Made by a program: the position numbers and the translations under genes | NCBI GenBank assembly: GCA_944377365.1 | Contig: CALWEQ010000010.1 | Location: 4,304-68,303, forward strand | Reading direction: 5' to 3' | DNA from: an uncultured Clostridia bacterium | GTDB taxonomy: Bacteria > Bacillota > Clostridia > Christensenellales > UBA1242 | Length of the DNA stretch: 64,000 nucleotides | The notes under the pieces: model-generated | Databases searched by the model: none | Told to the model about the DNA's origin: nothing | What the model saw: the letters and a program-made list of their open reading frames with translations, nothing else | Part shown: in pieces, positions 12,510 through 36,449 of the stretch | Layout: every line of letters begins with the position of its first letter | Numbering within the stretch: the stretch's first letter is position 1

Positions 12510-13160
12510 ATGATGAGATATTTTAATGTTGAGAATAATAAAATCACATATAATGCTATCGCTCAAAATTATGCAAATATTGCAATACGTGAAATTGCCC
12601 CAAAGTATTTTATAGACAATTTTTTAAATTCGTTGAATGGAAAGGATATTTTGGATGTTTGTTGTGGAACAGGGCAAATTTCAAAATATTTAGCGAGCGA
12701 AGGTTTTAATGTTTTGGGAATTGACAACAGCAAAAATATGATAAACCTCGCAAAGCAATTAGTAAAAAATTGCAAATTTAAGTTGGCAGATGCATTGGAA
12801 TATAAATCAGATTACAAGTATGATGGTGTGCTTGCACACGAGTGTTTGTCAAATTTCACATATTCACAAGCACGAAAATTGATCGAAAATATTTTTTATG
12901 CCTTAAAGGACGATGGAAAAGCACTGATATCTTTTTCGGAGGGCGAAGGGGAGCGTTTTGAACGATTAGATCCAGAATTACCTCTTAGGCTTTTCATAAA
13001 AAAATATACGGTTCGAGAAGTCAATGAAATTTTAGACGGATATTTTAAGATATCAGGAATGTGGGTAGTAAATGAAATGGAAAAGGAAAGACAAGTCGGC
13101 AGAAAATTTTATTTGTTGTTAACAAAAGCACCTTCATTTGAGCAAAATCCTATTGATTAG
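12510..13160 (+). CDS. Class I SAM-dependent methyltransferase
   Basis: Motif I ILDVCCGTGQIS; 216 aa. Confidence 0.75.
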   Translation: MMRYFNVENNKITYNAIAQNYANIAIREIAPKYFIDNFLNSLNGKDILDVCCGTGQISKYLASEGFNVLGIDNSKNMINLAKQLVKNCKFKLADALEYKSDYKYDGVLAHECLSNFTYSQARKLIENIFYALKDDGKALISFSEGEGERFERLDPELPLRLFIKKYTVREVNEILDGYFKISGMWVVNEMEKERQVGRKFYLLLTKAPSFEQNPID

Positions 13161-13163
13161 TAA

Positions 13164-13188
13164 AACATAGCAGATTGCTATGTTTTTT
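13164..13188 (+). terminator. Rho-independent terminator of the methyltransferase gene
   Basis: Stem AACATAGCA/TGCTATGTT with loop GAT, then a T-run. Confidence 0.7.
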
Positions 13189-13222
13189 AATGTTAACATT
13201 ATCGGGATCTAACTGACAAAAC

Positions 13223-13244
13223 AAAAAAAAGACCTCGAAAGGTC
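13223..13244 (-). terminator. Rho-independent terminator (second copy) after the tRNA-Thr pseudo-copy
   Basis: Minus strand: GACCT-TTCG-AGGTC followed by 8 T. It is a near-duplicate of the terminator at 13410-13430. Confidence 0.6.
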
Positions 13245-13251
13245 AGTTTGT

Positions 13252-13290
13252 TGGAGCTGGCGATAGGAATCGAACCTACAACCTGCTGAT
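13252..13290 (-). pseudogene. Orphan copy of the 3' half of tRNA-Thr(UGU), from the anticodon-stem 3' strand through CCA
   Basis: These 39 nt are identical to 13438-13476 of the intact gene. Upstream sequence (13291 onward) diverges and no acceptor 5' strand is present. Confidence 0.7.
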
Positions 13291-13409
13291 AACGAGCTGA
13301 GAGTGGGCAAATGCTTGCAAATTAGCACATGCGAAGCGAAGTTATATTAAAAACGAAATAGTGAGTTTTTAATATTATAGTCAGCGCTGACTTGTAATCA
13401 GTCTTAAAC

Positions 13410-13430
13410 AAAAAAAGACCCCGAAAGGTC
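13410..13430 (-). terminator. Rho-independent terminator at the end of the tRNA operon
   Basis: Minus strand: GACCT-TTCG-GGGTC followed by 7 T, 7 nt after the tRNA-Thr CCA. Confidence 0.65.
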
Positions 13431-13437
13431 ATTTAAA

Positions 13438-13512
13438 TGGAGCTGGCGATAGGAATCGAACCTACAACCTGCTGATTACAAGTCAGCTGCTCTACCGTTG
13501 AGCCACGCCAGC
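13438..13512 (-). tRNA. tRNA-Thr (UGU)
   Basis: GCTGGCG-TG-GCTC..GAGC-A-GCTGA-CTTGTAA-TCAGC-AGGTT-GTAGG-TTCGATT-CCTAT-CGCCAGC-T-CCA. Confidence 0.9.
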
Positions 13513-13566
13513 ATATTGCGAATTAAGTGCCAAAGAGAAGGGGAATTTGTTGACGCTTAATCGCGT

Positions 13567-13642
13567 TGGTGCCCTAAGGTGGAATCGAACCACCGACACA
13601 AGGATTTTCAGTCCTTTGCTCTACCGACTGAGCTATCAGGGC
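13567..13642 (-). tRNA. tRNA-Phe (GAA)
   Basis: GCCCTGA-TA-GCTC-AGTCGGTA-GAGC-A-AAGGA-CTGAAAA-TCCTT-GTGTC-GGTGG-TTCGATT-CCACC-TTAGGGC-A-CCA. Confidence 0.92.
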
Positions 13643-13677
13643 ATATAAATTAGTTTTTTTCGATTCCACCTTATTTT

Positions 13678-13856
13678 GCGGTGGTGTGGAATCGAAGCAC
13701 CGACACGGCTTCGAAAATCGTGCTTGCGCTCGCTTTGCTACTCGCAAAGGCTCGGTTAACGCACGTTTTCTTCGCTTCCCAAAATGCCAAGCATTTTGAG
13801 ACACCTCTGACTCAGTCCTTTGCTCTACCGACTGAGCTATCAAGAGATAATCAAGA
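13678..13856 (-). pseudogene. tRNA-Phe-like pseudo-unit with a 105-nt hairpin-rich insertion in the anticodon
   Basis: The 5' part, TGATAGCTCAGTCGGTAGAGCAAAGGACTGA, matches tRNA-Phe through anticodon position 35. Then comes a 105-nt insert (13707-13811), then GTGTCGGTGCTTCGATTCCACA (variable region and T-arm). There is no matching acceptor 3' strand. Confidence 0.65.
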
Positions 13857-13966
13857 CTTAGGTTAATGCTTGTTTAAAATGTTTTTATGTTTGAAAAACA
13901 AGATGTGAACCCAAAATTTCCCACTTATTAAACCATATAAAAAGGGGAGATTACGACAAACCAACA

Positions 13967-14043
13967 TGGCGACTCGGATGGGACTTGAACCCACGACCTC
14001 TAGCGTGACAGGCTAGCGTTCTAACCAACTGAACTACCGAGCC
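13967..14043 (-). tRNA. tRNA-Asp (GUC)
   Basis: GGCTCGG-TA-GTTC-AGTTGGTTA-GAAC-G-CTAGC-CTGTCAC-GCTAG-AGGTC-GTGGG-TTCAAGT-CCCAT-CCGAGTC-G-CCA. Confidence 0.92.
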
Positions 14044-14075
14044 ATATGAAGTTGATTTGTCGTTCGCTTTCGCGA

Positions 14076-14160
14076 TGGTGGGAAGGGATGGATTCGAACC
14101 ATCGAAGACGTAGTCGACGGATTTACAGTCCGTTGCATTTGGCCGCTCTGCAACCTTCCC
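14076..14160 (-). tRNA. tRNA-Tyr (GUA), long variable arm
   Basis: GGGAAGG..GCAGAGCGGCCAAATGC..CGGACTGTAAATCCG..long variable arm..GATGGTTCGAATCCATC-CCTTCCC-A-CCA. Confidence 0.9.
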
Positions 14161-14202
14161 ATGTTTGCGTTCAGCCACTTTTGTTGATGAGCAGTCTTGC
14201 TC

Positions 14203-14279
14203 TGGTGGGCCTTCAGGGACTTGAACCCCGGACCGACCGGTTATGAGCCGGTTGCTCTAACCAACTGAGCTAAAGGCCC
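14203..14279 (-). tRNA. Elongator-type tRNA with CAU anticodon (tRNA-Met, or tRNA-Ile2 if C34 is lysidinylated)
   Basis: GGGCCTT-TA-GCTC-AGTTGGTTA-GAGC-A-ACCGG-CTCATAA-CCGGT-CGGTC-CGGGG-TTCAAGT-CCCTG-AAGGCCC-A-CCA. It is not initiator-like: the 1:72 pair is intact and the anticodon stem has no GGG/CCC. The 5' half resembles what I recall of Bacillus tRNA-Ile2. Confidence 0.85.
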
Positions 14280-14664
14280 AAGAATAACTTGGATTTTTGT
14301 TTTTTTTCTACCGGTCGGTCCGGGGACGCGACTCGGTTATATCACAACAATTCTAACGAATAGTTGTGATGCGGTTTTCACAAAAATGTAATTGCAAGCA
14401 AACATTTTTGTTTTAACCTAAGAGCTCGGTTGCTCAATGGAGCTGAGCTAAAGGCCCAAGAATAACTTGGATTTTTGTTTTCTTCTGCCGGTCGGTCCGG
14501 GAGACGCGACTCGGTTATATCACAACAATTCTAGCGAAGAGTTGTGATGCGGTTTTCACAAAAATGTTATTGCAAGCAAACATTTTTGTTTTAACCTAAG
14601 AGCTCGGTTGCTCTTGTGAGCTGAGCCCAAGACCCAAGATTAACTTGGATTTTGATTTTTCTTC
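14280..14664 (-). repeat. Tandem repeat of 178-bp tRNA(CAU)-derived units (14280-14457, 14458-14635, plus a partial third copy of about 29 bp)
   Basis: The two full units are roughly 90 percent identical by eye. Each starts (minus sense) with GGGCCTTTAGCTCAG (unit 1) or a degenerate version (unit 2) and carries the same upstream spacer, AATCCAAGTTATTCTT, as the real tRNA. Confidence 0.85.
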
Positions 14665-14676
14665 ATTTATAGAAGA

Positions 14677-14752
14677 TGGTCGGGGTGGAGAGGCTCGAAC
14701 TCCCGACCCCATGGTCCCAAACCACGTGCGCTACCAACTGCGCTACACCCCG
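14677..14752 (-). tRNA. tRNA-Pro (UGG)
   Basis: CGGGGTG-TA-GCGC-AGTTGGTA-GCGC-A-CGTGG-TTTGGGA-CCATG-GGGTC-GGGAG-TTCGAGC-CTCTC-CACCCCG-A-CCA. Confidence 0.9.
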
Positions 14753-14802: not shown

Positions 14803-14955
14803 GAAAATTAAAACAATTTTTATAAAATAATTGTAAATTTCTATTTTTGCACTCTTTTTTTAAGAATTTTAAATTATAGAAGCTTTTTAATCTTTACTCT
14901 TGTTTCACTTTATTTTATTAAAAATTTTTATTTTTGTGAAATTTGTTAGTTTATT

Positions 14956-15031
14956 TGGTCGGCGTGGCGGGATTTGAACCCACGACCTCATGGTCCCGAA
15001 CCATGCGCGCTACCAACTGCGCTACGCGCCG
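14956..15031 (-). tRNA. tRNA-Pro (CGG)
   Basis: CGGCGCG-TA-GCGC-AGTTGGTA-GCGC-G-CATGG-TTCGGGA-CCATG-AGGTC-GTGGG-TTCAAAT-CCCGC-CACGCCG-A-CCA. Confidence 0.9.
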
Positions 15032-15039
15032 ATATACTG

Positions 15040-16452
15040 CTAATCAGTAAATACGTTTTGATCAGCATAATTTTTTATAAAATTTATTTTATTCTCCATT
15101 TGTTTTAAAGAAACAGGGAAAAAGTCAAAATAAGTTGTAGCAACATTAAAGCCAGATTTGCTTACAGGTTTTAATGTGTGGACATGGCCAAACAGATTTA
15201 TCATTTCTTTGTTGCAATCAATAGGTTTGTGTGTCAAAAATATTTCAAAATTGTCTATTTTAATTTTTAAATTTTTTTCTACTACGTCGTAAAATCCAAT
15301 AGATTTAAGTTGTTCTTTAAACTTGCTAAAACTTAATTTTTGTCTTTTCATATCTGCAACTTCATAATTTCCCAAGATTAATATAACTTTTCCGTTTAAC
15401 CTTTTTATATAATTATATTCTCCAAAGTCGCCTAGATGATAAACGACATCGTCTTTTGAAACAACGCTGTTCCATCTTTTTACTAGTTCATAATTCATTT
15501 GTTCAACATTTTCAAAAGGTACTAAATGAAATTTTATCACGCGATCAGAAGAAAAGTGAGTGTCAGAAGTAAAGAAAATGTTTTTTTGTGATTTTGTTTC
15601 TACTGATGTAATTGAATTGATAAAATCTTTCCATATGTCATAATTAGCTTCTTTTTGTAAATCAAAAATGTAATTTACTTCTTTAAATTGGTCAAGTTTT
15701 TCTTGTTCTTTTAAAAGTTCGTTGGCATTGATTTTTGTTGAGCAAAACCAATTTTTGTTTATTAAATACGCTACAGGTCCAATATCGTATATGGTGTGTA
15801 TGCCACGGTTTTGTATTTTAAAAACTGAATCATTTAATTTTCTGTAAAGATATCTTCCAAGTTTATTTTGGCATAAATGATTTTTTGCTTCGTAAATGCT
15901 TGTTACAAACTGTTTTGCTACGGTGCTTGGAAAAATTGTTAAATCGTCAACGTTTTTAATTACAACTTCAAAAGCTTTTTTGTCTTTAATGTAATTAAAA
16001 TCTGTAAATTTTTTGTGTAATAGATGTTGAGTACCTAAAAAAATTATCCTTAAGTTTTTGGATATTTCAGGCTTACTTAAAAGTGCAATGGCGACATTCG
16101 TGAGAGTTCCTAAACAAAGAATAGTAATTTTTTCTTTGCTTGCAATTTTCACTATTTCACTTGATGCGTCACTAACTTTTTGATAGTTGTTTGAAAGATA
16201 ATCAATACTCCCATTTTTTACTATATCTGTATTTTTTAATCCCATTGTTCGCATCAATCTTTTAGCTTCAAATTTTGAATCGATATTGTTGTCATGAATG
16301 GAGTTTCTTTTATAACTAGCTGTAAACGGTGAAACAGAAATGAGTTTAATATCAAACACATCTTGGCGCGAAAGTGCATAGGCGAGGGCAAACACGTCAT
16401 CAACTTCATTTGACACATCACTATCAATAATAAGTTTCATTTTTTTCTTCAT
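15040..16452 (-). CDS. Fusion protein: inosine/uridine-preferring nucleoside hydrolase domain (N-terminal) plus calcineurin-like metallophosphoesterase domain (C-terminal)
   Basis: N-terminal IIDSDVSNEVDDVFAL is the DxDxxxDD nucleoside hydrolase fingerprint. The C-terminal roughly 170 aa carry SDTHF, LGDFG, GNYE, THKP and GHVH, the metallophosphoesterase motif series. Confidence 0.7.
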   Translation of the reverse strand: MKKKMKLIIDSDVSNEVDDVFALAYALSRQDVFDIKLISVSPFTASYKRNSIHDNNIDSKFEAKRLMRTMGLKNTDIVKNGSIDYLSNNYQKVSDASSEIVKIASKEKITILCLGTLTNVAIALLSKPEISKNLRIIFLGTQHLLHKKFTDFNYIKDKKAFEVVIKNVDDLTIFPSTVAKQFVTSIYEAKNHLCQNKLGRYLYRKLNDSVFKIQNRGIHTIYDIGPVAYLINKNWFCSTKINANELLKEQEKLDQFKEVNYIFDLQKEANYDIWKDFINSITSVETKSQKNIFFTSDTHFSSDRVIKFHLVPFENVEQMNYELVKRWNSVVSKDDVVYHLGDFGEYNYIKRLNGKVILILGNYEVADMKRQKLSFSKFKEQLKSIGFYDVVEKNLKIKIDNFEIFLTHKPIDCNKEMINLFGHVHTLKPVSKSGFNVATTYFDFFPVSLKQMENKINFIKNYADQNVFTD

Positions 16453-25422: not shown

Positions 25423-25516
25423 AAAAAAATTATAGCATATTGCTTGACAAGAATTAAGCAAATTTGTAAAATTAAAACATAAAAAGCGAAGATAAAGGAG
25501 TAGTAGCTTTTTCAAA

Positions 25517-25728
25517 ACGTGATTGCAGAGAGGTTCATGCTTGCTGGAATTGAACCATCACGAAAAAAGTGAATTCACCTTTTAGCTGTTCGGCAGAAGC
25601 TTTGTTGTGTGTAAGCTGGATCGGTGGCGACCGTAATATCGCAAGATGAGGGTCTAGTTAGACTGAAGTTAGGTGGTAACGCGTGGAAGTTTTCTCTCGC
25701 CCTAATATGATGGGTGAGAGATTTTTTT
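25517..25728 (+). promoter_or_regulatory. T-box riboswitch leader (Phe specifier UUC) with terminator/antiterminator, controlling pheST
   Basis: Stem I starts with TGATTGCAGAGAGG. GAA-UUC-A in the specifier position (UUC at 25574-25576). T-box sequence AGGTGGTAACGCG at 25671-25683. Terminator TCTCTCGCCC/GGGTGAGAGA plus a T-run at 25693-25728. Confidence 0.85.
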
Positions 25729-25739
25729 AAGGAGATGAA

Positions 25740-26759
25740 ATGGAAGAAAAATTAATCGATATTTTAAATAGGGCGCAAAATGAATTAAAAGAAATTTCAA
25801 CTAAAGATCAACTTGTTGATTTTAAAGTCAAATTTTTAGGCAAACAAGGTGAGCTTACAAGTGTTTTGCGTGGAATGAGAGATGTTGCTCCTGAGGATAG
25901 ACCAAAAATTGGGGCTATGATAAATGAATTGCGTGAGAAAATTGAAAATGCTTATGCTCAAAAAGAAGAATATTTCAACAAACTCGAGCTCGAAAAGGAA
26001 TTGGCAAGAGGTGCCATTGACATAACTGAACCTGGAAAAAATCATGAAAGAGGGGCGCTTCATCCTACTACAAGAATGTTTAACAAGATGATTGACATTT
26101 GTGTTGCAATGGGGTTTAAGGTTGTCGAAGGCCCCGAAATAGAGTCAGATTATTACAATTTCGAGGGACTAAACATTCCGAAAAATCATCCTTCAAGGGA
26201 TATGCAGGACACCTTTTTCATAACTGAAAACATATTGCTAAGGTCACAAACTTCATCTGTTCAAGTTAGGAGTATGGAAACTCTTAAACCTCCATTTAAA
26301 ATAATTTCACCAGGAAGAGTTTACCGAAACGATAGTGATGCAACACATTCGCCTGTTTTTCATCAGCTTGAAGCTTTGGTAGTTGATCAGAATGTTTCTA
26401 TGTCAGATTTAAAAACTATGCTGACGGATATTATGAAGAAGATATTTGGGGAAGAAACGACAATAAGATTTCGTCCAAGCTTTTTCCCATTTACTGAACC
26501 AAGTGTTGAAGTTGACGTAAGTTGCCCAACTTGTAATGGCAAAGGTTGTAAGGTCTGCAAGGGGACAGGTTTCCTTGAATTGCTTGGAGCTGGCATTGTA
26601 AATCCAAAAGTGCTTGAAATGTCGGGTATTGACAGCAAAAAATATCGTGGCTTTGCTTTTGGCTTTGGTGTTGACAGATTTGCTATGGTTTATGACGGAA
26701 TAACTGATCTAAGAAACATGTTTAAAAATGACATCAGATTTTTAAAGCAGATGAAATAG
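25740..26759 (+). CDS. pheS: Phenylalanine--tRNA ligase alpha subunit
   Basis: Class II synthetase motifs (HPSRDMQDTFF, FRPSFFPFTEPS, GFAFGFGVDR); 339 aa. Confidence 0.95.
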   Translation: MEEKLIDILNRAQNELKEISTKDQLVDFKVKFLGKQGELTSVLRGMRDVAPEDRPKIGAMINELREKIENAYAQKEEYFNKLELEKELARGAIDITEPGKNHERGALHPTTRMFNKMIDICVAMGFKVVEGPEIESDYYNFEGLNIPKNHPSRDMQDTFFITENILLRSQTSSVQVRSMETLKPPFKIISPGRVYRNDSDATHSPVFHQLEALVVDQNVSMSDLKTMLTDIMKKIFGEETTIRFRPSFFPFTEPSVEVDVSCPTCNGKGCKVCKGTGFLELLGAGIVNPKVLEMSGIDSKKYRGFAFGFGVDRFAMVYDGITDLRNMFKNDIRFLKQMK

Positions 26760-26807: not shown

Positions 26808-29192
26808 ATGAAAGTAACTTATAATTGGCTAAAAGATTTTGTAGACGTAGATATGTCTGCCGAAGAGCTTGCAAAAAAGCTCACTAATGCTGGTATGGAA
26901 GTCGAAGAAATCATCTATCTTAACAAGCATCTTCATCATGTTGTGGTTGGTAAGATTTTGAAAATCGAAAAACACCCAAATGCAGACAAGTTGCAAGTGT
27001 GCAAGGTCGATGTCGGCAAAGAGGTAGTACAAATAATAACTTCGGCAACCAACATTTTCGAAGGCGCAATAGTGCCCGTGTCATTAGAGGGGGCTGATTT
27101 AATTAATGGTGTAAAAATATCAAAGTCTAAGCTTCGTGGAGTTGAGTCTGACGGTATGTTTTGTTCGGGCGAGGAGCTTGGAATAGATGAGAATTTTATG
27201 CCAGGAGCTTCTGTAAATGGCATACTTATCTTGCCTGATAATTTTGTTGTTGGGCAAAGCATAGACGAGGCGCTTGGTCTAAATGATGTTGTTTTTGACG
27301 TTGGCATAACTCCAAATCGACCAGATTGTATGAGTGTTATTGGCCTAGCGCGAGAGGTTTGTGCAGTAACAGGAGCAAAATTTAAAAAACCAGATTTGTC
27401 TTATAAAGAATCAATAATTCAAAATGACATGACTGTTGAACTAAAATCAGAAAAATGTTCGCGTTATATGGCAGCTGTGCTAAAAAATGTTAAGATAGAA
27501 AAATCTCCTTTGAAAATCAGGCAAAGGCTTTTTGCTGTGGGAATCAAACCTATCAACACACTTGTCGATTTGACTAATTATGTTTTAATTGAGATGGGTC
27601 AGCCTATGCACGCTTTTGACCAAAAGTATATTGAGGGTAAAAAGATTGTGGTTCGTGATGGCATCGCTGGTGAAAAGCTTTCGGTGTTAAACCATAACAC
27701 TTACACGCTAAATGAGTCAGATTTAGTGATTGCCGACATAAACAAACCAATGGTTATTGCCGGGGTTATTGGTGGAACAAATTCTTGCATATCAAACGAA
27801 ACGCGTGATGCGGTGATAGAATCTGCTGTTTTTGATTTAAAAGCAATTCGTTTAACCAGCAAAAAAATAGGTGTGAGGACGGATTCGTCTGCTAGGTATT
27901 CAAAAGGTGTTTATTTTCACAGTGCAGAGGATGGATTAAAAAGATTTTTAAATTTGATTTCTAGTTTAGAATTAGGAGATATTTGCAAAGGTATTATTGA
28001 TGAAAACCGAGCTGTACCAAAAACACGGGATGTTTATGCGAAGGTTGACGATATTAATGCTATTTTAGGAACGGCCATTTCTGCTGATGACATGGTCAGA
28101 ATTTTGAATTCTTTGCAAATCCCGACTAAACTTGAAGGTGACACTATAGTAGCAAACATTCCTAATTTCCGTGAAGATTTAGAAAATGAATATGATTTGG
28201 CAGAAGAGGTCATTAGAATTTATGGGTATGACGTCTATGATCGTGGTGAAGCCAGAGAGGCATATCTAGGTTGGAAATTAACACAGGGCGACTATGGCAA
28301 AAAGGTTGTTTTAGAACGAAAAATTAAGGAAGGATTAAAGTACTCAGGATTTTTTGAGGCTATGAATTATTCCTTTATCCCACCTGATTCAGTTTCAAAG
28401 CTGATGCTTACTGACAACAGGCGTTTTATGATTAAAATTGCAAATCCTATTGGCGAAGAACTTTCTTGTATGAGGACCTCTCTTGCTCATTCAATGCTCA
28501 GCTCTTTGGCTTACAACTTTAGCGTTGGAAACAAAGAGGTGAGATTGTTTGAATCCGGAAAAACTTTTCATCCAAAAGCATTGCCTTTAACAGAACTTCC
28601 TATTGAAATTAACAAGATCAGTATGGGCGCTTATGACATAAGCTTTGCAGAGTTTAAAGCGTGCGTTGAAAATGCTGTATCAGAAACTAGTCTTTCTTAC
28701 AAACTTGTCAGCTCTAAAGAGCCATTTTTACATCCTGGTGTTTCAGCTGATATAGTTGATGAAAATGGTGAAATTTATGCTTCCTTTGGACAGATTCATC
28801 CAACTGTTGCGAAAAACTACAATATTCCAAAAACAAGTATGTTTGCCGAAATAGACTTAGACAAATTGTTGAGTTTGCCAGAGAAAAAGTTTGTAGTCAA
28901 ACAAGTTCCAAAATTTCCTATTGTAGACAGGGATTTGGCGATTGTTGTGAAAGAGGAAATTTCAAACTCAGATTTGGAAAGCGCCATTAAATCTGCTTGT
29001 GGAAAAATATTTTACGAGGTTAAACTATTTGATGTTTACAGAAACAAGGCACTTGGTGATGGACTAAAATCAATGGCTTATAATATAAGATTGTCAAATG
29101 AAAACAAAACTTTGACAGATGAAGAAGTGACAGACACTATAGCTAAAGTGTTAAAAGCATTAAAATTTAGATATGGAGCAAGTTTAAGATGA
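26808..29192 (+). CDS. pheT: Phenylalanine--tRNA ligase beta subunit
   Basis: 794 aa. N-terminal tRNA-binding domain (MKVTYNWLKDFVD...KIEKHPNADKL), then B3/4, B5 and anticodon-binding domains. Confidence 0.95.
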   Translation: MKVTYNWLKDFVDVDMSAEELAKKLTNAGMEVEEIIYLNKHLHHVVVGKILKIEKHPNADKLQVCKVDVGKEVVQIITSATNIFEGAIVPVSLEGADLINGVKISKSKLRGVESDGMFCSGEELGIDENFMPGASVNGILILPDNFVVGQSIDEALGLNDVVFDVGITPNRPDCMSVIGLAREVCAVTGAKFKKPDLSYKESIIQNDMTVELKSEKCSRYMAAVLKNVKIEKSPLKIRQRLFAVGIKPINTLVDLTNYVLIEMGQPMHAFDQKYIEGKKIVVRDGIAGEKLSVLNHNTYTLNESDLVIADINKPMVIAGVIGGTNSCISNETRDAVIESAVFDLKAIRLTSKKIGVRTDSSARYSKGVYFHSAEDGLKRFLNLISSLELGDICKGIIDENRAVPKTRDVYAKVDDINAILGTAISADDMVRILNSLQIPTKLEGDTIVANIPNFREDLENEYDLAEEVIRIYGYDVYDRGEAREAYLGWKLTQGDYGKKVVLERKIKEGLKYSGFFEAMNYSFIPPDSVSKLMLTDNRRFMIKIANPIGEELSCMRTSLAHSMLSSLAYNFSVGNKEVRLFESGKTFHPKALPLTELPIEINKISMGAYDISFAEFKACVENAVSETSLSYKLVSSKEPFLHPGVSADIVDENGEIYASFGQIHPTVAKNYNIPKTSMFAEIDLDKLLSLPEKKFVVKQVPKFPIVDRDLAIVVKEEISNSDLESAIKSACGKIFYEVKLFDVYRNKALGDGLKSMAYNIRLSNENKTLTDEEVTDTIAKVLKALKFRYGASLR

Positions 29193-34024: not shown

Positions 34025-35239
34025 ATGAAAAGACGAGCGTTATGGGTTTCCATGCTTTGTGTGACTATAATAATATTACTTTTTGTTAATGTCAGATTTT
34101 CTGAAATTTATTCGCTACCTGATGGTTTTTTGGCAACTCGTGAAGAGGTTGAAGCTTCCAATCAAAATGGACTGTTTGGAAATTTTATATCTGCTTCGAT
34201 GGAGCAAACTTCTCAATCTGTTTCAACTGATAAAACAACCGAAGGTTACATAACATTTAAGTTGTTTGGATTTATTCCTATTAGAAAAGTGGTTGTTGTT
34301 TGTGCAGAGGAAGAAGAAGTGTTTGTGGGGGGAGTCCCAATAGGAATAAGCATAAGTGCTAAAGGCGCAATAGTCATAAATGAAAAAATGGTAGATTCTG
34401 TTGACGGATTGGTTGAAACAGAAAAAAGTGAAAAATTTAAAGAGGGAGACATAATCGTAAAAATAAATAATATTGATGTAAAATCATTAGACGAACTTAG
34501 CGAATATGTTGAGGAAAGTGATGACGAATTGTTTGAAATTTCTTTTTTAAGAAAAAATAAATTGCGTACCGCCAAAATTCGTGGTGTAAAGGATAAAACC
34601 ACAGGTAAATACAAATTAGGATTGTGGGTAAAAGATGATGTTTCTGGCATCGGAACATTAACATATGTTAACAAGCAAACGCAAAAGTTTGGTGCGCTTG
34701 GTCATGCAATAACCGAATGCGAAAACTGTATTCCTGTTGGTGAAGGAAGTGTACATTTATGTAAATTAATTGGAATAGAAAAAGGAGAAATTAACGATCC
34801 TGGTCAGCTAAGGTGTATGTTTTCTAAAGGTGACAAAACAAAAGGTGAGCTAGAAAAAAACACACGTTATGGTGTGTTTGGGAAATTGACCGATTGTGAA
34901 AATTTAATAGATGAAAATCTCTCGTCAAAGATAGGGGGAAGATTGTCTGTTAGTCCTGGTAAAGCGAGCATAATTTCCAGTATAAGTGGAATAAGAGAAG
35001 AATATGAAATTGAAATAATCAAAGCCTCTTATCAATCAAAAGCAGATGACAAAAGCATAGTTTTTAGAGTTAAAGACAAAAGATTGATTGAACTGACGGG
35101 AGGCATAGTGCAAGGCATGAGTGGATCACCAATATTGCAAAACGGTAAATTAGTTGGCGCGGTAACCCATGTTTTTACAGCTGATCCAACAAAGGGATAT
35201 GGAATATATAGTGATTGGATGGTTTTAAACGAAAACTAA
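34025..35239 (+). CDS. spoIVB: SpoIVB peptidase (S55 serine peptidase with PDZ domain)
   Basis: N-terminal TM segment, PDZ (GDIIVKINNIDV), catalytic region GIGTLTYV...ALGHAI...GIVQGMSGSPI. Conserved argR-recN-spoIVB order. Confidence 0.9.
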   Translation: MKRRALWVSMLCVTIIILLFVNVRFSEIYSLPDGFLATREEVEASNQNGLFGNFISASMEQTSQSVSTDKTTEGYITFKLFGFIPIRKVVVVCAEEEEVFVGGVPIGISISAKGAIVINEKMVDSVDGLVETEKSEKFKEGDIIVKINNIDVKSLDELSEYVEESDDELFEISFLRKNKLRTAKIRGVKDKTTGKYKLGLWVKDDVSGIGTLTYVNKQTQKFGALGHAITECENCIPVGEGSVHLCKLIGIEKGEINDPGQLRCMFSKGDKTKGELEKNTRYGVFGKLTDCENLIDENLSSKIGGRLSVSPGKASIISSISGIREEYEIEIIKASYQSKADDKSIVFRVKDKRLIELTGGIVQGMSGSPILQNGKLVGAVTHVFTADPTKGYGIYSDWMVLNEN

Positions 35240-36276
35240 TTTTTTGATGTGTTGATTTTAACTTTGTTTGCCACCGATTTTCGCATATCTTCGCTTATTG
35301 CAGCATAGTGCTTTTTGGTTGTGTTGACATCTTTATGGCCAAGCACGTCTGCGACAATGTAAATGTCGTTTGTTTCTCTATATAAATTTGTTCCAAAAGT
35401 ACTTCTTAATTTATGCGGAGAAATCTTTTTTAGGGGAGTCGCTTCTTTTGCGAATTTTTTTACTAAATCCTCGACTGCTCTAACTGAAATTCTCTTTTTT
35501 TGCAATGAAATAAACATTGCGTTTTCATCAGGATCTAAACCCAAAGTTGCTCTCTTTTTTAGCCATTTTTTTAAGGCTTCTGCAACTTCATTCGAAAAAT
35601 ATAAAACGGTTTGATTGCCACCTTTTCTGGTGACCTTAAATGCATTTTGTGAAAAATCGAAATCCTCCAAATTTAATCCAACGCATTCAGAAATACGTAT
35701 GCCAGTGCCTAAAAATAATGTTACTATTGCATTGTCTCGTTCGAAAGTGTTTTGATTGTAGGCCTTTTGGCGCTTTGAAAATGTGTTGTTCGATGAAAGT
35801 GCATCCATCATCCTAGAGATCTCATCTTGCTCCAATCTTATTATTCCTTTGCTGTGAAGTTTTGGCATTGGAACTTTACTTGCGACGTTTGATGAAATTA
35901 GGTCGTGGTCAAATAGGTATTTGAAAAAGCTTCTAATTGAGGCAAGTTTTCTAGCTTTTCCGCGTTCACCATTTTTGTTAACTTTTCCTTCAGCTTCGTA
36001 AAAGGAAAGATAAGACAAGTATTGCTCAATTTGTGTTGATTTTAGTTTGTCTAAGTCTTGTAAAGTTATTTCAGACTTATTTTTGTGTAAAATTTCCTGT
36101 AAAAAGTCAAAAAATATATTTAAATCCATTGCATAATTTCTTCTTGTCAATGATGAAGAATTGTTTTCAATACCAATAAAAAAATCGTAAACAAAGTCTG
36201 GCAAATTGGCCGTTATTGAACCTATCTTTTTTTGATTTGAAATATCACGTTTTTCAAAATAGCTAAGTTTTTTCAT
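35236..36276 (-). CDS. Tyrosine-type site-specific recombinase (XerC/XerD-like integrase family)
   Basis: C-terminal catalytic residues: GTGIRISEC (Arg), HKLRSTFGT (HxxR), LGHKDVNTTKKHY (His/Tyr). N-terminal SAM-like core-binding domain. Confidence 0.8.
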   Translation of the reverse strand: MKKLSYFEKRDISNQKKIGSITANLPDFVYDFFIGIENNSSSLTRRNYAMDLNIFFDFLQEILHKNKSEITLQDLDKLKSTQIEQYLSYLSFYEAEGKVNKNGERGKARKLASIRSFFKYLFDHDLISSNVASKVPMPKLHSKGIIRLEQDEISRMMDALSSNNTFSKRQKAYNQNTFERDNAIVTLFLGTGIRISECVGLNLEDFDFSQNAFKVTRKGGNQTVLYFSNEVAEALKKWLKKRATLGLDPDENAMFISLQKKRISVRAVEDLVKKFAKEATPLKKISPHKLRSTFGTNLYRETNDIYIVADVLGHKDVNTTKKHYAAISEDMRKSVANKVKINTSKN

Positions 36277-36449
36277 AAGCAAATTATACTATATTTAAAA
36301 AAATAATGCAAAAGATTTTGTATACAATATGTTGTGTGTTTTATCTCATAACAGTCACTATAAATACAAAACAATATGAAAAACTTATTATTTTATTTGA
36401 CTTTACATAATCGAATATTATAAACTTAACTAACAAAGGAGCATTGATA

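Follow-up and report, generated by a model that had tools for sequence, protein, structure and literature searches.

We found that a tRNA operon of a gut Clostridia bacterium carries, between tRNA-Asp and tRNA-Phe, a broken second copy of tRNA-Phe that is split at the anticodon by an insert and followed by a segment antisense to the intact tRNA-Phe beside it. This Phe-like unit is a real, reproducible feature. We propose that it is a decayed tRNA-Phe duplicate that was remodeled by insertion and fold-back copying and may have been retained as a structured spacer RNA, a reading to which we assign a probability of roughly 0.4. In what follows, the window is the whole 64,000-nt stretch of DNA analyzed, and coordinates refer to it unless a related locus is named.

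The Phe-like unit is a split and rearranged copy of tRNA-Phe

The unit begins with a pseudo-tRNA-Phe 5′ part that corresponds to positions 1 to 35 (13812 to 13846, minus strand) and comprises CTCT, the D-arm, the 5′ strand of the anticodon stem, and CTGA. A sequence-only reading made before this analysis had matched the copy to tRNA-Phe from position 5 to CTGA, and we found the same: 13842 to 13812 on the minus strand is a 31-nt exact match to tRNA-Phe(GAA) positions 5 to 35. The acceptor 5′ strand is degenerate and reads CTCT in the window, CCCC in the related locus L002, and GCCC in L005. The insert at the anticodon (13707 to 13811, minus strand) folds into three helices, P1, P2, and P3. P1 is a hairpin (TCTCAAAATGC/GCATTTTGGGA, 13801 to 13777), and P3 is an inner hairpin (CTTTGC/GCAAAG, within 13750 to 13732). 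The insert had been described as 105 nt with two hairpins; its extent from 13811 to 13707 was confirmed, and the long-range helix P2 (GAAAACGTGC/GCACG(A)TTTTC, 13770 to 13761 with 13723 to 13713) is additional. A short open reading frame (ORF) in the window's insert, 12 codons by reading, is not kept in L005.

Behind the insert the copy resumes, as had been claimed, with the variable region and T-arm (GTGTCGGTGcTTCGATTCCAC, 13686 to 13706, minus strand), matching positions 44 to 64 with one mismatch. The eight bases from 36 to 43 and the acceptor 3′ strand are absent. A 12-nt segment, ACCACCGCAAAA (13674 to 13685, minus strand), joins the T-arm copy to a 15-nt antisense arm, TAAGGTGGAATCGAA (13659 to 13673, minus strand; inverted match I6). 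We found that this arm is a perfect complement of positions 54 to 68 of the real tRNA-Phe (13575 to 13589) over all 15 nt, with 69 nt between the two. Its last 11 nt also pair with the copy's own T-loop and T-stem, and the resulting 11-bp fold-back has a 16-nt loop made up of ACCACCGCAAAA and the first 4 nt of the arm. The inverted T-loop/T-stem copy reported earlier was thus right as to the 11 bp formed with the unit's own T-arm, but the inverted piece itself is 15 nt long. The start given for the unit, 13678, was too short; the inverted piece ends at 13659, 19 nt further. A spacer (13643 to 13658, minus strand) that is poorly conserved, with 59 to 61% identity between lineages, separates the module from the intact tRNA-Phe(GAA) gene (13567 to 13642, minus strand), which holds the target of the arm.

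With its flanks (13655 to 13860), the unit has a folding energy of −70 kcal/mol (z = −3.5). By our own estimate, about 2 × 10^-4 perfect inverted matches of 15 nt within about 100 nt are expected in a 2.2-kb region, and this region holds three long ones (15, 16, and 16 nt; I3, I4, and I6 taken together). The Phe module is not an assembly artifact, because it is present in independent assemblies (L002 and L005).

The unit lies inside a minus-strand tRNA operon

ARAGORN and the Rfam model RF00005 called eight real tRNAs. The minus strand encodes every tRNA of the cluster, and the GC content of the window is about 33%. First in operon order is tRNA-Pro(CGG) (15031 to 14956), followed by a strong promoter-like site between the two tRNA-Pro genes (14802 to 14774), tRNA-Pro(UGG) (14752 to 14677), two tandem 178-nt CAU units 3′ of it (14304 to 14659), and tRNA(CAU) (14279 to 14203). 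tRNA-Tyr and then tRNA-Asp lie between tRNA(CAU) and the Phe-like unit. Past tRNA-Phe comes tRNA-Thr(UGU) (13512 to 13438), and 3′ of it are a terminator (13410 to 13430), the Thr unit (13252 to 13401), and a second terminator (13223 to 13244), all on the minus strand. Because the Phe module is inside this operon, it is presumably transcribed as the spacer from tRNA-Asp to tRNA-Phe. In the window, we found no promoter-like site preceding the Phe unit, and in the lineage of L003, L005, and L006 tRNA-Asp lies too close to the unit to leave space for a separate promoter; for these reasons we take the unit to be part of the precursor.

The tRNA called Met(CAT) at 14203 to 14279 has a tRNA-Ile-like body (GGGCCTTTAGCTCAGTTGGTTAGAGCA...) and may be a lysidine-dependent tRNA-Ile2. 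On the plus strand, a terminator-like hairpin with a T-run (CCAAGAATAACTTGG ATTTTTG) occurs at 14278 to 14292, 14456 to 14470, and 14634 to 14648, antisense to the tRNAs, where the CAU tRNA and each of the two CAU units begin. These hairpins could stop antisense transcription.

We also found that the cumulative GC skew reaches its maximum near 41 kb, where gene orientation switches from plus to minus, a pattern like that of a replication terminus. Judged by GC skew and gene orientation, the plus strand is the leading strand from 1 to 41 kb. The tRNA operon and a 470-aa gene next to it are among the few minus-strand genes in this plus-oriented arm and are thus head-on to replication. A gene for a Xer-like tyrosine recombinase (35236 to 36282) lies near the skew switch (about 41000). 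Elsewhere in the window, a T-box leader (RF00230, 25480 to 25707, 106 bits) is directly 5′ of pheS (25740 to 26759), so tRNA-Phe would also control its own synthetase here. The next ORF after pheS (26808 to 29192, 794 aa) is probably pheT.

Units at tRNA(CAU) and tRNA-Thr share the plan

We mapped all exact sense and antisense tRNA matches of at least 9 nt and read the plan of the units from this map. Each of the two CAU units has sense positions 1 to 34, an 81-nt two-hairpin insert, sense positions 35 to 50, and an antisense arm; the copy resumes exactly at position 35 after an insert behind position 34. The CAU arms (14310 to 14325, 16 nt, and 14488 to 14501, 14 nt) are directed against positions 39 to 54 of tRNA(CAU). 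The Thr unit places its antisense anticodon arm first (13386 to 13401, the complement of positions 26 to 41), followed on the minus strand by sense positions 26 to 32 (13379 to 13385), an 88-nt insert (13291 to 13378), and a copy of tRNA-Thr positions 37 to 75 (13252 to 13290) with a terminator after it. A 73-nt direct repeat, 90% identical and made up of the tRNA 3′ half and the terminator (D5), flanks the Thr unit.

The inserts of all three unit types sit in the anticodon loop, at positions 34 to 37 (for Thr, between positions 32/34 and 37). The antisense arms of the Phe, CAU, and Thr units are 14 to 16 nt long and perfect against the real tRNA. From arm to target, the gap is 70 nt for the Thr arm (13386 to 13401), 68 nt for the CAU arm at 14310 to 14325, and 69 nt for the Phe arm (13659 to 13673). 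This gap of 68 to 70 nt holds though two of the arms are upstream and one is downstream of its own tRNA, and the spacing is similar in L002 and L005. At the junction of sense and antisense pieces, the spacer is 0 nt in the Thr unit (palindrome AGTCAGC/GCTGACT), 2 nt in the CAU units (sense, CC, antisense), and 12 to 16 nt in the Phe unit. The Phe layout had been likened to that of the CAU units, and the comparison extends to a third tRNA: a tRNA part, an anticodon-loop insert, and an inverted fragment recur at Phe, CAU, and Thr.

The units occupy the same sites in three lineages

We gathered relatives through the adjacent gene, which encodes a 470-aa nucleoside hydrolase/phosphoesterase. Units were found at the same sites in three species-level lineages, those of the window (W), of L002 (B), and of L003, L005, and L006 (A). 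The neighbor protein is 84% identical to that of the window in L002, 88 to 92% in L003, L005, and L006, and 66% in L007. L007 has the empty state: its operon has the same orientation and the same seven tRNAs and lacks units; the spacers between the second tRNA-Pro and tRNA-Thr measure 6 to 42 nt. The empty L007 and the shared sites of the window, L002, L003, and L005 suggest a lineage-specific gain of the units.

The number of units varies. There are two CAU units in W and L003 and one in L002 and L005, and one Thr unit in W and at least two in L005 and L025. The CAU elements of L002 and L005 have few bases of the 5′ part left, and L026 has lost the distal Thr half. Assemblies break at the units, and lookups by neighbor protein gave mostly contigs ending there. 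Lineage A has extra unit types with sense and antisense tRNA pieces, two of 175 nt after the CAU tRNA and one of 83 nt after tRNA-Phe. With units at the same sites in relatives and two further types in one lineage, the earlier proposal of a recurring process rather than a one-off scar holds.

The 175-nt tandem units (L005:9425-9775, L003:10509-10610) were seen in the L003/L005 lineage only. Each ends in a copy of the last 18 to 19 nt of the CAU tRNA and has antisense positions 57 to 68 and 47 to 57 plus the anticodon-loop fragment CTCATAAC. In the 83-nt unit between tRNA-Phe and tRNA-Thr (L005:10344-10426), antisense positions 69 to 59 pair with a second copy of the tRNA-Phe 3′ end (57 to 76); the helix has 12 bp, terminates in GCACCA, and resembles an acceptor/T-arm minihelix. 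A decayed form of this unit may be present in the window as the 54-nt hairpin spacer between Phe and Thr (13513 to 13566).

A similar layout follows tRNA-Arg(CCG) on an unrelated freshwater metagenome contig (L021:1788-2015, equal to L017). In order 3′ of the tRNA-Arg, there are 12 nt, a 19-nt antisense of the T-loop and acceptor strand with one mismatch, a stretch of about 125 nt made up of hairpins, the last 13 nt of the tRNA-Arg again in sense orientation, and a terminator.

Changes were also seen between the tRNA-Pro genes. L003, L005, and L006 have an insertion of 1.3 to 1.7 kb there (L003:8650-9980, L005:7500-9080) that is not in the window or L002; its ORF, on the opposite strand, is 169 aa long and repeat rich, and no Pfam match is recorded for it. 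In the spacer between the two tRNA-Pro genes (14950 to 15100), the window is nearly identical to L001, though the adjacent protein is only 84% identical, and the spacer of L002, with the same protein identity as L001, is unalignable to the window. This pattern suggests mosaic recombination in the DNA surrounding the tRNAs.

The three inserts resemble neither each other nor known elements

We found no significant similarity among the three inserts by pairwise local alignment on both strands (P = 0.04 to 0.5). Covariance models of the CAU element (R1) and the Phe insert (R2) matched their own family only, with no cross-family matches. By eye, the plus strand of the Thr insert resembles the Phe insert (CAAATGCTTGCAAATT..GCGAAGCGAAG), but the likeness failed a shuffle test. 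The inserts are not derived from tRNAs on either strand. The sequence-only reading had proposed one recurring element, and this proposal fails, the three inserts being unrelated by alignment and by covariance model. It had been staked both on similar inserts and on copies in relatives; no significant similarity was found, and the copies exist.

BLAST searches of the 64-kb window and about 90 kb of related loci gave no extra copies of any unit type. An interspersed repeat of the MITE or REP type was rejected, since in the window and related loci no insert occurs away from its own tRNA. Phage and plasmid collections gave matches to tRNA genes only, and a scan of viral contigs for the Phe antisense motif gave 0 matches. 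Twelve loci were returned by a metagenome scan for the T-arm fold-back pattern, 10 of them unrelated palindromes and 2 the tRNA-Arg case. In the literature searched, we found no description of such units.

No Rfam family matched any unit at gathering thresholds or at E values up to 10. A functional tRNA was rejected; the Phe unit has no complete cloverleaf, and neither ARAGORN nor RF00005 made a call on it. ARAGORN with introns allowed made no call either; with lowered thresholds, all of its calls were spurious and on the opposite strand. A T-box leader was likewise rejected, RF00230 matching only at 25480 to 25707 and nowhere in the units. The anticodon-loop site would fit a group I intron, but we found no Intron_gpI match at E values up to 10 (13100 to 14700) and rejected this candidate as well. 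The inserts are 81 to 105 nt long versus the 200 nt or more, approximately, expected of a group I intron, and the flanking "exons" of the Phe insert cannot join into a complete tRNA.

Antisense arms change less than inserts

The window and L002 are 97 to 98% identical across the whole cluster, bar three short variable stretches. Because this identity spans the whole cluster, the comparison of W with B says little about the unit itself. Compared with the window, the Phe insert has 94% identity in L002 and 73% in L005, and both retain the helices. Between W and A, identity is 73% in the Phe insert, 80% in the CAU insert, 83% in the Thr insert, 61 to 71% in the unit-to-tRNA spacers (29 to 39% changed), and 95% in the Phe T-arm copy; the pooled antisense arms are identical at 44 of 47 nt. 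The inserts have thus changed by 17 to 27% between the window and L005, versus 3 of 47 nt in the arms. The binomial probability of at most two changes in the arms is 0.002 to 0.02, a figure that the three changes observed fall outside. The Phe arm is identical in the window, L002, and L005, and both internal arm changes in lineage A are G·U compatible with that lineage's own tRNA.

Pairing in the inserts was kept in several places. P1 of the Phe insert has many differences between W and A, yet it has 11 and 12 bp in the two, with G·U on the tRNA-sense strand; in the three sequences in which the Phe unit was compared, P1 is remodeled and still paired. In the CAU element, 92% of the cells are paired, and four pairs (8 cells) are G·U. 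Three of its 39 pairs changed on both sides, and its covariation score exceeds that of all 500 shuffles, in a comparison of just 6 related sequences. These covariation statistics are weak because there are only three lineages, two of them nearly identical (97 to 98%). In addition, template-switch correction of quasi-palindromes can mimic compensatory change. We found no consistent strand bias in the folding energies of the units, so their stability can be put down to DNA palindromes just as well as to RNA.

Other parts of the units were not kept. The tRNA-like 5′ part decays differently in each lineage, in the acceptor strand in W and in the D-stem in A, and it is lost in some copies; the tRNA mimicry itself is therefore not conserved. 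Judged by the window and L005, the units have diverged about as fast as the other spacers between tRNAs.

A proposed origin and mode of action

From the anatomy of the unit, we suggest that tRNA-Phe was duplicated locally, which left a second copy upstream of the functional gene. The copy would then have been split in the anticodon loop by the 105-nt sequence that folds into three helices, and its 3′ end would have been replaced by inverted T-loop, T-stem, and acceptor sequence through fold-back or template-switch copying. In the ancestor of a small clade of gut Clostridia, the CAU tRNA and tRNA-Thr would each have undergone an independent event of this kind, and unequal crossing-over would now be adding and removing units. 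The palindromic junctions speak for duplication and fold-back copying from the tRNA gene. In the units, the inverted copy adjoins its template with a short spacer or none, as fold-back copying would leave it, and the antisense arms match the real tRNA better than they match the local copy. Head-on transcription may favor such rearrangements, yet L007, which has the same orientation, is clean.

Cleavage by RNase P at the 5′ end of tRNA-Phe would release the module from the precursor. With the 15-nt arm on the module's own T-arm copy, tRNA-Phe would be free to fold. Alternatively, the arm could base-pair to the nascent tRNA-Phe along its T-arm and acceptor strand and would then block the cloverleaf. 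In the upstream units, the polymerase reaches the internal partner first; this partner would neutralize the arm, and opening of that hairpin would trap the tRNA. We folded each unit together with its tRNA and compared two competing predicted states, the precursor with the arm on the real tRNA and the precursor with the native acceptor stem enforced. The predicted energies were −99.5 versus −97.0 kcal/mol for Phe, −104.1 versus −90.5 kcal/mol for CAU, and −90.5 versus −82.6 kcal/mol for Thr. With moderate confidence, we propose a cis-acting clamp that would modulate how much of the precursor matures. The clamp fits the Thr unit poorly because the Thr antisense arm lies beyond a terminator.

A wider reading, which we hold to be rather doubtful, is that the units represent an undescribed class of tRNA-derived cis-acting RNAs made from dead tRNA copies, in which a 15- to 16-nt arm would toggle between an internal decoy and the nascent tRNA and so gate the maturation of individual tRNAs in one operon. 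If this were true, the tRNA-Arg layout in L017/L021 would mean that the device arises repeatedly.

Alternative explanations

The units could instead be neutral debris, scars left when a heavily transcribed head-on operon underwent tandem duplication and fold-back repair, with hairpins that are young palindromes and have had little time to decay. We regard this as a serious possibility, though one that we do not prefer. The minus-strand operon opposes the plus-strand leading direction from 1 to 41 kb, the palindromic junctions have spacers of 0 to 2 nt, copy number is variable and breaks assemblies, and the tRNA-like parts decay. The lack of strand bias in folding energy, the spacer-like rate of change between the window and L005, and a window-L002 identity that is high over the whole cluster and not in the units alone also fit such debris. 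Scars would be less expected to show antisense arms changed at so few positions next to inserts that differ by 17 to 27%, or several helices kept through double and one-strand G·U changes. All three unit types have been kept in three species-level lineages, and L007 has the same orientation and no units; these observations likewise argue against debris.

Relics of mobile DNA that targets tRNA anticodon loops, either att remnants or nonautonomous mini-elements that each brought or duplicated a tRNA part, are an unlikely source. All three inserts are at positions 34 to 37, and the anticodon loop is reportedly a classic crossover sublocation for tyrosine integrases. Direct tRNA repeats, as expected of att remnants, are present: the 73-nt Thr repeat has the layout expected from Campbell-type integration, the Phe 5′ part is repeated (D8), and L005 also repeats the 12-nt leader. 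The empty site in L007 and the tandem units fit as well. Against such an origin, no recombinase or cargo was found in or beside the units, where there are only short spurious ORFs overlapping tRNAs or units and the neighbors are housekeeping genes. The sole integrase-family ORF seen (35236 to 36282) among the 16 scanned of the window's 57 ORFs of at least 150 aa is Xer-like and 20 kb away. The inserts are mutually unrelated and single copy, with no phage or plasmid similarity beyond tRNAs. Further, the upstream units duplicate 5′ halves, which is rare for integrases, and integration leaves the inverted fragments unexplained.

A role at the DNA level is very improbable. Here the inverted repeats of 15 to 16 bp, about 84 to 86 bp from center to center, would be binding or pausing sites for a protein or for replication-transcription encounters; the arm gap, constant at 68 to 70 nt in three units despite their differing geometry, and the head-on operon are consistent with this, but the downstream units of L005 lack the spacing and the G·U-type changes favor RNA pairing. 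We know of no candidate protein. The chance that the unit is an intron-containing or split functional tRNA-Phe gene is negligible: the insert is in the anticodon loop, where bacterial group I and archaeal introns occur, and the D-arm and T-arm are present, but the acceptor 3′ strand and positions 36 to 43 are absent, damage affects the acceptor 5′ strand in the window and the D-stem in L005, ARAGORN with introns is silent, and 105 nt without a group I match is too short for a group I core.

If the units are functional, tRNA output would be tuned gene by gene in a polycistronic operon by tRNA-derived antisense segments, and they would clearly exemplify how a pseudogene can give rise to a new structured RNA. 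Were they instead neutral, they would record an unusual local mutational process at tRNA genes, made up of duplication, anticodon-loop insertion, and fold-back copying, which breaks metagenome assemblies and can mislead tRNA and intron annotation. Either way, the 68- to 70-nt spacing and the repeated anticodon-loop breakpoint call for a mechanism.

Comparison with known systems

The units resemble the tRNA remnants of att sites in that partial tRNA copies flank a short foreign segment by an intact tRNA, with a breakpoint in the anticodon loop and an empty site in a relative. They differ in having no integrase or cargo, in the small size of the inserts (81 to 105 nt), in repeating 5′ halves in the Phe and CAU units, and in their inverted fragments and tandem arrangement. 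Bacterial group I introns of tRNA-Leu(UAA) and tRNA-fMet likewise lie within the anticodon, at positions 34/35. In contrast, the inserts here are too short and have no catalytic core, and their flanks cannot form a tRNA.

Fold-back or template-switch duplications, known from quasi-palindrome mutagenesis, also leave an inverted copy by its template with little or no spacer, and tRNA stems would supply the microhomology. Here, however, the arms fit the neighboring real tRNA better than the local copy, and they are conserved across species, which is not required of a pure scar. The intervening sequences of 23S rRNA are, like the units, sporadic and lineage-specific stem-loops of about 100 nt at loop tips of a stable RNA gene. 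Their host is a working gene, whereas the host here is a dead tRNA copy, and excision by RNase III is a feature of the known system.

Among regulatory RNAs, the 3′ETS-leuZ sponge of Escherichia coli is a structured RNA in a tRNA precursor that is released by processing, as we suppose for the Phe module. The units here complement the adjacent tRNA rather than small RNAs and are known from sequence alone. T-box leaders are, like the units, cis RNAs complementary to a tRNA, and the loop of the Thr antisense arm presents an ACA codon. Unlike T-boxes, the units have no T-box motifs by Rfam, lie inside a tRNA operon, and are complementary over 15 to 16 nt of T-arm or variable regions. Set beside these systems, the units are, as far as their sequence tells, tRNA-derived pseudogenes or repeats with an unusual conserved antisense component.
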